Source: Escherichia phage vB_ECOLIGBLB0003. From it: a DNA stretch of 64,000 nucleotides. The translations under genes and the position numbers were made by a program. Shown here in pieces: positions 46,110-46,140 of the stretch (its first letter is position 1; each line of letters begins with the position of its first letter). Location: sequence record PV654517, one strand, 5' to 3'. The notes under the pieces were generated by a model that saw only the letters and a list, made by a program, of their open reading frames with translations, made no database searches and was not told the origin of the DNA.

Positions 46110-46140
46110 TATAGTACCACAGTATGCTTTGGTTGTAAAC
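46110..46140 (-). promoter_or_regulatory. early-type promoter upstream of motA (-35 GTTTAC, -10 TACTATAC)
   Basis: GTAAAC on + strand at 46135-46140; conserved GTATCAGTAGTTGATAGTTGTATAGTACCAC block; A/T-rich upstream. Confidence 0.55.

Follow-up and report, generated by a model that had tools for sequence, protein, structure and literature searches.

In a 64,000-nucleotide stretch of Escherichia phage vB_ECOLIGBLB0003 (sequence record PV654517; hereafter the window), the repeated minus-strand promoters, among them the motA early promoter at 46111-46140, are in all probability explained as a whole by T4-type early promoters with an extended consensus and a start-site box, by promoter-leader cassettes that recombine, and by a separate layer of hairpins. 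As part of this explanation, the conservation beyond the -35 and -10 hexamers would have three sources: the already known extended consensus, the start-site box, and paralogous cassettes subject to short-patch recombination. A first-pass annotation of the window had claimed that this conservation exceeds what sigma-70 contacts require, and the sequences bear it out. Promoter identity, a statistical excess, structure kept in orthologues, and signatures of recombination were all observed in the analysis.

Early promoters of the window

The window belongs to a Tequatrovirus, at roughly 96-97% identity to T4-like phages. Over its full length, the 6-kb stretch around the motA promoter matches hundreds of Tequatrovirus (T4-like) genomes at 95-97% identity, and the gene order there is gp52, motA, ndd, denB, rIIB. 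By BLAST, the window corresponds to T4 from 120.5 kb to 168.9 kb and on to 12.9 kb, with most genes on the minus strand, except the tail-fibre and tail genes, which are on the plus strand. The pattern GTTTAC-N16-19-TANNNT has 18 matches in the window, 16 of them on the minus strand, where 3.4 were expected, and none of 100 shuffled sequences reached 18. The 16 exact minus-strand sites (GTTTAC-N17/18-TAnnnT; spacer of 18 nt in 15 sites and of 17 nt in one), together with one promoter that has a degenerate -35 (ATATAC), give a total of 17 early promoters. The start codon of a T4 early-gene orthologue lies 25-45 nt downstream of every site, and the genes served are srd, motB.2, motB, rIIA.1, the replacement of ndd.6, ndd.4, motA, asiA, rnh, frd.3, frd.1, alc, cd.2, 30.8, 30.7, and alt.-3. 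T4 has the same promoters with near-identical sequences, including both copies of a 31-nt block described below (T4 163673 and 167086), and its record labels “early promoter Pe133295” at the cd.2 site. Since the same sites are found in T4 with early-gene orthologues downstream, the promoter repeats are the known T4 early-promoter family. Their sequences mark them as canonical early promoters of the T4 type, dependent on sigma-70. Start sites (+1) are throughout those predicted from the sequence.

The nine sites listed by coordinates in the first-pass annotation are real to within 1-3 nt (14706-14735, 28342-28371, 29074-29103, 46111-46140, 49249-49278, 49740-49769, 54230-54259, 57937-57966, and 62904-62933), and the “two hairpin elements” that it mentioned besides are, by our own identification, probably 2573-2602 and 17699-17728. 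Its list was incomplete by five exact sites (11141-11169, 11532-11561, 32956-32985, 43646-43675, and 59039-59068). It had rightly listed 57325-57355 as a variant of the long block, without recognizing there the promoter with the degenerate -35, which we place at 57347-57376.

In the motA early promoter (minus strand; orthologous to T4 site 163673), the -35 GTTTAC (46135-46140) is followed by an 18-nt spacer ending in TGTGG, the -10 TACTAT (46111-46116), and a predicted +1 at A46104. Upstream of the -35 lies an A/T-rich UP-element region (46141-46166, minus strand), near-identical to the region upstream of the promoter at 29103, and directly before this an intrinsic terminator (46167-46192, minus strand; GGGAGAGCC GAGG CTCTCCC followed by T6) that would insulate the promoter. 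The predicted 5' leader (46067-46104, minus strand) contains TATCAA (46100-46105), a GGAG Shine-Dalgarno (SD) sequence (46078-46081), and the ATG (46067-46069). The motA SD of T4 is cleaved by RegB (PMC2988021). At several promoters the stop codon of the upstream open reading frame (ORF) overlaps the -35 hexamer (TAGTTTAC, with the G shared) or ends 0-3 nt before it (2602, 28371, and 54259; nearby at 14735 and 57966), so that the UP-element region lies inside coding sequence.

Conservation past the -10: a start-site box and recombining cassettes

The copies were aligned and a motif built, as the first-pass annotation had proposed: the consensus of the 16 exact sites, aligned on the -10, is at.tttt..aaaaaaatttcA.AaAgt.GTTTAC..N..tgTG.TAttAT, that is, an A/T-rich UP region, the -35, a variable spacer, TGn, and the -10. 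Hinton 2010 (PMC2988021) describes T4 early promoters as of this UP/-35/TGn/-10 type, with “additional regions of consensus.” Past the -10 the information content is lower, yet cTATCAA is common to a subset of the 16 sites.

A wider set was drawn from loci around motA, dexA, and pseT in other T4-like phages, with 361 unique sites of which 205 were non-redundant. Among the latter, ATCAA occurred at an offset of exactly 6 after the -10 hexamer in 52, and at any other offset in at most 5. The TATCAA box, 5 nt past the hexamer and with its A at the predicted +1, was present in 52-54 of the 205. Its share of non-redundant sites was 36% for the Tequatrovirus-like ones and 25% for those from other T4-like loci. 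It occurs with more than one -10 variant, and the spacers adjoining it are not conserved in diverged T4-like phages; a box kept while the neighboring spacer is not looks constrained rather than merely inherited. Across genera, only these first ~6 nt of the leader are conserved, at a distance that is fixed to the -10 and variable to the SD or ATG. The box would probably fix or optimize initiation at its A. Related phages favor C at -3 to -1 (Nolan et al. 2006). An association of TATCAA with the GGAG SD, the RegB target, held in 5/5 cases in the window and was gone in 195 non-redundant sites (Fisher p=0.2). A resemblance of TATCAAC to an IHF site (WATCAANNNNTTR) or a DnaA box was also discarded, as the flanks fit inconsistently on inspection by eye, the only check made.

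The longest identities have another distribution. A 31-nt block occurs exactly at 46090-46120 and 49719-49749 (both minus strand), with 0 copies expected by chance; the first-pass annotation had the first copy exactly right and the second displaced by one nucleotide (start at 49719, not 49720). Copy 1 comprises the extended -10 and the first ~15 nt of the predicted motA transcript (GTGGTACTATACAACTATCAACTACTGATAC), and copy 2 falls within the promoter (49740-49769) of the 68-aa ORF found in place of T4 ndd.6. A third copy, of the leader core only (57326-57342, minus strand; 17 nt with one mismatch), stands behind the degenerate -35 promoter (57347-57376, minus strand; ATATAC at 57371-57376 and -10 TACTAT at 57347-57352). 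Partial variants follow the -10 at the 29103 promoter (ACAACTATCA) and at the 49278 and 28371 promoters (TACCCTATCAA), and identity of at least 20 nt is confined to the three paralogous copies. The shared stretches as a whole are blocks of 31 nt, 17 nt, and ~55 nt, plus shared UP regions, as in the frd.3 early promoter (29074-29103, minus strand; terminator upstream at 29129-29153), which has its UP region and “GGTACTATACAACTATCA” in common with the motA promoter. A 41-nt block was found, unannotated, in 1098 places in 508 T4-like records, with 1-4 copies per genome among the records listed.

Several signatures of recombination were found at these cassettes. Phages with 100% identical MotA have two unrelated motA promoter-leader cassettes (L005 vs. 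L007), and in L007 the ndd.4 promoter has “acaactatcaacta” in place of “taccctatcaacta” of the window, a patch exchange. The alc and alt.-3 promoters, about 15 kb apart, are identical at 54/55 positions in T4 (T4 136336 and 123093, respectively); as the -10, both copies of T4 have TATAGT and both of the window have TACAGT (17699-17728 and 2573-2602), with L083 mixed, and this concerted change indicates gene conversion. At the 49.7-kb copy, identity to T4 spans the leader and the SD up to the ATG and is followed by a different ORF. Of 62 clusters of homology breakpoints, mapped by comparing the window with close relatives, 9 lay inside the 121-nt cassettes, where the expectation was 4% (p=7e-4). 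Common descent together with ongoing short-patch recombination would keep 17-55 nt identical at promoters kilobases apart, and the promoter-leader-SD cassettes would act as junctions for gene swapping, as in the picture drawn for promoter-early stem-loop (PeSL) elements. As a side observation, the segment 49497-49700 has no T4 homology, and the 68-aa ORF (MFTTAELKRAK...) sits there in place of ndd.6, directly behind the conserved promoter-leader-SD cassette.

The first-pass annotation had suggested an extra recognition element or a conserved leader. The fixed TATCAA fits a start-site element; the long identity belongs to three paralogous, recombining copies. We consider it improbable that the block beyond the -10 functions as a 5' leader, an RNA element for the stability, processing, or translation of early mRNA. 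It is predicted to be transcribed, is identical in three unrelated transcription units, and is kept in 508 T4-like genomes, and RegB is known to target the motA mRNA; however, no structure is predicted for the leader shared by motA and the ndd.6-like gene (z = +0.6 and -0.6), no Rfam family was found in the whole window, what persists across genera is TATCAA alone, locked to the -10 and not to the SD or ATG, the box is unassociated with a GGAG SD, and MotA-identical phages carry a different motA leader. From a comparison of sequences, the long blocks thus appear better explained as recombining paralogous cassettes than as a conserved functional leader.

Hairpins spanning the -10

The inverted repeats are real and are a layer distinct from the conserved block. 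They were measured as the duplex energy between the -35-to-spacer segment and the promoter's own 45-nt downstream region, and counted at a threshold of ≤-14 kcal/mol. Mean duplex energy over the 16 promoters was -13.4 kcal/mol for cognate and -8.2 for non-cognate pairs (permutation p<5e-5). Eight of the 16 promoters (motB.2, motB, ndd.4, alc, cd.2, 30.8, 30.7, and alt.-3) reached the threshold; for positions of the window in random register, the share was 4.6%. With full folding, frd.1 and the promoter upstream of cef (a 13-bp perfect repeat) join them, for 8-10/17 with a -10-spanning hairpin. In about half of the promoters, then, the variable spacer can pair with the initial transcribed region of that same promoter, and often with its SD. 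The top three local hairpins of the whole window are promoters. The folds of read-through RNA had z scores of -3.7 to -8.3, with none of 200 shuffles equally stable. Among the 361 sites from other T4-like loci, 32% were at ≤-14 kcal/mol compared with 4.4% of non-cognate pairs, and the non-redundant fractions were 28% and 22%. No clear hairpin excess was seen at middle-promoter-like sites (6.7% vs. 2.1%). The first-pass annotation had described inverted repeats bracketing the -10, which are thus present beyond chance, except that its CCAC/GTGG pair (49769 and 54259) lies inside the spacer. These two promoters, 49740-49769 and 54230-54259, are otherwise unrelated and have a common spacer, ACCACAAGGAYSGTGGTA, with the CCAC...GTGG palindrome internal to it.

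The hairpin is kept in orthologous promoters with unrelated arm sequences, as seen for motB.2 and 30.7, and absence of the inverted repeats from homologous promoters of related phages, which the first-pass annotation had named as a reason to abandon its idea, was not found: they are present, often with different arms. Between dexA and motB.2, the arms are CCTCGGTTAGTTATGG/CCATAGCTACTGAGG in T4-type phages, TCTCCTCATG/CATGAGGAGA in another group, and GACCTCCT/AGGAGGTC, directly after the -10, in a third, and more distant phages have a terminator-like stem around the -35. In L058, L060, and L061, after the dexA match (~10640-10720), the -35 occupies the loop of a GC-rich stem, beyond which comes a T-rich tract (e.g., GGCCTAGAT-GTTTAC-ATCTAGGCC-ATTTG), so that terminator and promoter form a single element. 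One group of phages has GGTACAGG/CCTGTACC as the arms at the 30.7 promoter, and a second group has GCTGATTGAGTGT/ACACTCAATCAGC. The T4 and window sequences differ by a C-G to U-A double change in alt.-3 and by GU/GC switches in ndd.4.

In five window promoters (all minus strand) the 3' arm covers the SD. The alt.-3 early promoter (2573-2602) lies within a 21-bp hairpin, with arms at 2572-2594 and 2547-2567, the 3' arm over the SD AAGGA, and a read-through fold of -26.9 kcal/mol (z -8.3). Its cassette paralogue, the alc early promoter (17699-17728), has arms at 17698-17722 and 17672-17693, the latter over the SD (z -5.2). At ndd.4 (49249-49278) the arms are 49254-49268 and 49224-49238, with CGGAGGAACAG as a 3' arm that includes the SD (z -5.7), and at motB.2 (59039-59068, probably T4 “P8.1”) they are 59044-59061 and 59019-59035, the 3' arm ending in the SD GAGG (z -7.0). 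The 30.8 early promoter (11532-11561) pairs TTCCTTTG (~11540-11548) with CAAAGGAG (~11511-11519), the latter over the SD, and has an intrinsic terminator upstream (11586-11609).

The hairpins of cd.2, 30.7, and motB involve no SD/AUG pairing. At 30.7 (11141-11169, minus strand; region 11129-11169), the tight hairpin, GGTACAGG/CCTGTACC, brackets the -10 clear of the SD (z -3.7), at cd.2 (14706-14735, minus strand; region 14697-14735) the hairpin GGTAGAG.../...CTCTACC brackets and includes the -10 (z -5.5), and at motB (57937-57966, minus strand; region 57924-57966) GGGACCA/GGTCC(T) brackets it. The cd.2 site is the T4 promoter Pe133295, for which T4 133300-133313 (window ~14706-14720) carries the misc_feature [quoted passage not shown]; these 14 bp fall in the loop and stem of the hairpin. 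At frd.1 (28342-28371, minus strand; region 28336-28371), GGGTAGTAGTGT pairs with ACTATTACCC and the -10 is part of the 3' arm. In the degenerate -35 promoter, the spacer ATCAGTAGTTGAT (57358-57370) and the leader ATCAACTACTGAT (57328-57340) are perfect reverse complements. No hairpin was found across the -10 of rIIA.1 (54230-54259, minus strand), where the palindrome is inside the spacer, nor at srd (62904-62933, minus strand) or asiA (43646-43675, minus strand, within asiA.1), and no strong one at rnh (32956-32985, minus strand).

We infer a function for the hairpins from the position of their arms. [quoted passage not shown] It is on such RNA that the hairpin would act. The predicted accessibility of the region from the SD to the AUG rises from the long to the short transcript at ndd.4 (0.28 to 0.72), alc (0.19 to 0.48), and 30.8 (0.37 to 0.91), and predicted SD accessibility is also higher in the short transcript at rIIA.1. 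In the SD-covering class, the ribosome-binding site (RBS) would be occluded on read-through RNA or would depend on coupling to the upstream ORF, and efficient translation would require the early promoter of the gene itself. Most 5' arms begin 8-18 nt after an upstream stop codon, which makes translational coupling an alternative outcome. The tight -10-bracketing class would more likely be an insulator or a 3'-end stabilizer.

Taken furthest, the hairpins would be a selected, cross-genus device that makes the translation of about a quarter of the early genes depend on their own early promoter, and therefore strictly immediate-early, a mirror of e, soc, 49, and I-TevI with their late-promoter hairpins; in addition, TATCAA would be an unrecognized promoter element, for example a handle for early shut-off. 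We hold this joint reading to be rather unlikely. A number of results weigh against the proposed role of the hairpins in general. The motA promoter has no spacer-leader hairpin (duplex energy -4.5) and its leader is unstructured, so the hairpin account does not apply to it. Predicted SD accessibility is unchanged between long and short transcripts at cd.2 and 30.7. Some 40% of strong hairpins leave the SD untouched, and SD coverage is not enriched (58% of strong hairpins vs. 77% of chance duplexes); with leaders this short, it may be unavoidable. Covariation in the alc/alt.-3 family amounted to one compensatory pair and three one-sided changes, a score reached by 36/500 shuffles in a family with few distinct sequences. 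Hairpin registers differ between genera, which makes column-wise covariation inapplicable and would also fit hairpins that arose de novo more than once, through templated (quasi-palindrome) mutation. Stability favors the sense strand by 2.5 kcal/mol, compared with 2.0 in random regions (p=0.26), an asymmetry that is genomic background, and so the RNA-level and DNA-level roles are inseparable by it. Mutual exclusion of an upstream terminator and an embedded hairpin was a trend only (OR 0.21, p=0.13).

The main rival to translational gating takes the hairpins as attenuators, terminators, or 3'-end stabilizers of the upstream mRNA, the function that the PeSL authors proposed for their stem-loops, with SD coverage incidental and the overlap with promoters explained by T4 having no other non-coding space. 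We see it as a possibility, though a somewhat doubtful one. Arbiol et al. 2010 (PMC2839356) reported that one RB49 PeSL stem-loop lowered lacZ expression to an extent similar to rrnB T1, and stem-loops overlapping the -10 are a common class in their list. In the window, upstream stop codons abut or overlap the -35, leaving the spacer and the leader as the sole free sequence, and enrichment is greatest in hairpins clear of the SD (12.7% vs. 0.6%). Three promoters have a canonical upstream terminator instead, and terminator and hairpin rarely occur together (1/16 vs. 46/189), an exclusivity that does not reach significance. However, no U-run follows any -10-spanning hairpin on either strand, so these are not canonical intrinsic terminators. 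Termination of opposite-strand transcription was considered and rejected, the nearest T-run being ~14 nt from the stem. A role of the inverted repeats in DNA, by extrusion or pre-melting at the -10 that would tune promoter strength or supercoil sensitivity, or by binding of a protein that shuts off early promoters, seems very unlikely to us. The mechanism of early-promoter shut-off has been described as incompletely understood (PMC3014915). The hairpin loops are centered on the -10 hexamer, the excess is found at early-type and not at middle-type promoter sites, and the strand-asymmetry test gives no preference for RNA. However, the arms are wholly different between promoters and between orthologues, ruling out one sequence-specific binder, and 12.5% of the stem pairs are G.U, which in DNA would be mismatches. 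Cruciforms also form poorly from stems of 7-13 bp that enclose loops of 10-15 nt, a further count against the DNA-level alternative.

A few other features of the window were noted. The 57347-57376 promoter and a strong SD (GGAGAATAAAATG) precede only an 11-codon ORF, MDNSPKVLLLF* (57268-57303, minus strand), upstream of cef, which could be an unannotated leader peptide; the T4 annotation is blank between motB and cef. The same SD-to-start block is identical in four window leaders (approx. 49700-49712, 57301-57313, 11500-11512, and 11104-11116) and appears elsewhere in 10/205 non-redundant sites. There are two tandem full-length alt-like ORFs (2602-4659 and 4663-6759, both minus strand; 685 and 698 aa), where T4 has one alt and a truncated duplicate, alt.-1/alt.-2. 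The topoisomerase large subunit is a single 606-aa ORF (54259-56079, minus strand), without the split of T4 into gene 39, mobA, 60.1, and gene 60 and the translational bypass.

Comparison with known systems

Everything described here maps to T4 early promoters and PeSL-type cassettes, and the novelty is accordingly low. The T4 early-promoter family and the PeSL-type promoter/stem-loop cassettes are already known; the quantified start-site-spanning hairpins, their retention with unrelated arms, and the fixed TATCAA box may be new. The main use of the finding is correct annotation. If it is true that the hairpins gate translation or stabilize upstream mRNAs, they would explain the independence of tandem strong promoters in dense early regions and offer a simple handle on the distinction between immediate-early and delayed-early expression.

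T4 early promoters (Pe) were reportedly catalogued by Liebig & Ruger in 1989 and by Wilkens & Ruger in 1994, and they are reviewed in Hinton 2010. The window promoters share with them the GTTTAC -35, the 17- to 18-nt spacer, TGn, the -10 TAnnnT, and the A/T-rich UP region, as well as the genomic positions (motA, motB, motB.2, alc, cd.2, 30.7, 30.8, ndd.4, srd, and others). They differ by a few substitutions, some of them pairing-preserving, and in nothing essential.

PeSL cassettes are described as mediators of modular shuffling (Arbiol et al. 2010, PMC2839356; Comeau et al. 2014, PMC4122927), and these papers cover the T4/PST pair, the ndd.4/.5 exchange, and the consensus TTTACW-N17-TAYWAT. 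Such cassettes are repeats whose similarity may extend over as much as ~100 bp, SD and ATG included, and their recombination with one another is held to yield mini-circles. The window likewise combines an AT-rich region and a strong early promoter with a stem-loop and the SD/ATG, in units repeated around hyperplastic early regions with indels and gene swaps between close relatives, and its -10-overlapping stem-loops are a described class. As to the stem-loop itself, there are -10-spanning hairpins at 8-10/17 promoters and upstream terminator hairpins at 3, the motA promoter having a terminator only. In the legend to the PST/T4 figure, however, the stems are placed “just upstream” of the promoter (terminator type), whereas most stems of the window span the -10 and the start site, have no U-run, and often pair with the SD; terminator anatomy (stem plus U-run) is found only in the three separate upstream terminators.

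The T4 genes e, soc, 49, and I-TevI have RBS-sequestering hairpins with an internal promoter (PMC3014915). There, as predicted for the window, long transcripts fold and those from the internal promoter do not. The T4 cases use late promoters (TATAAATA) that delay expression, whereas the window hairpins accompany an early sigma-70 promoter and would restrict expression rather than delay it; about 40% of the early-promoter hairpins are, in addition, clear of the SD.

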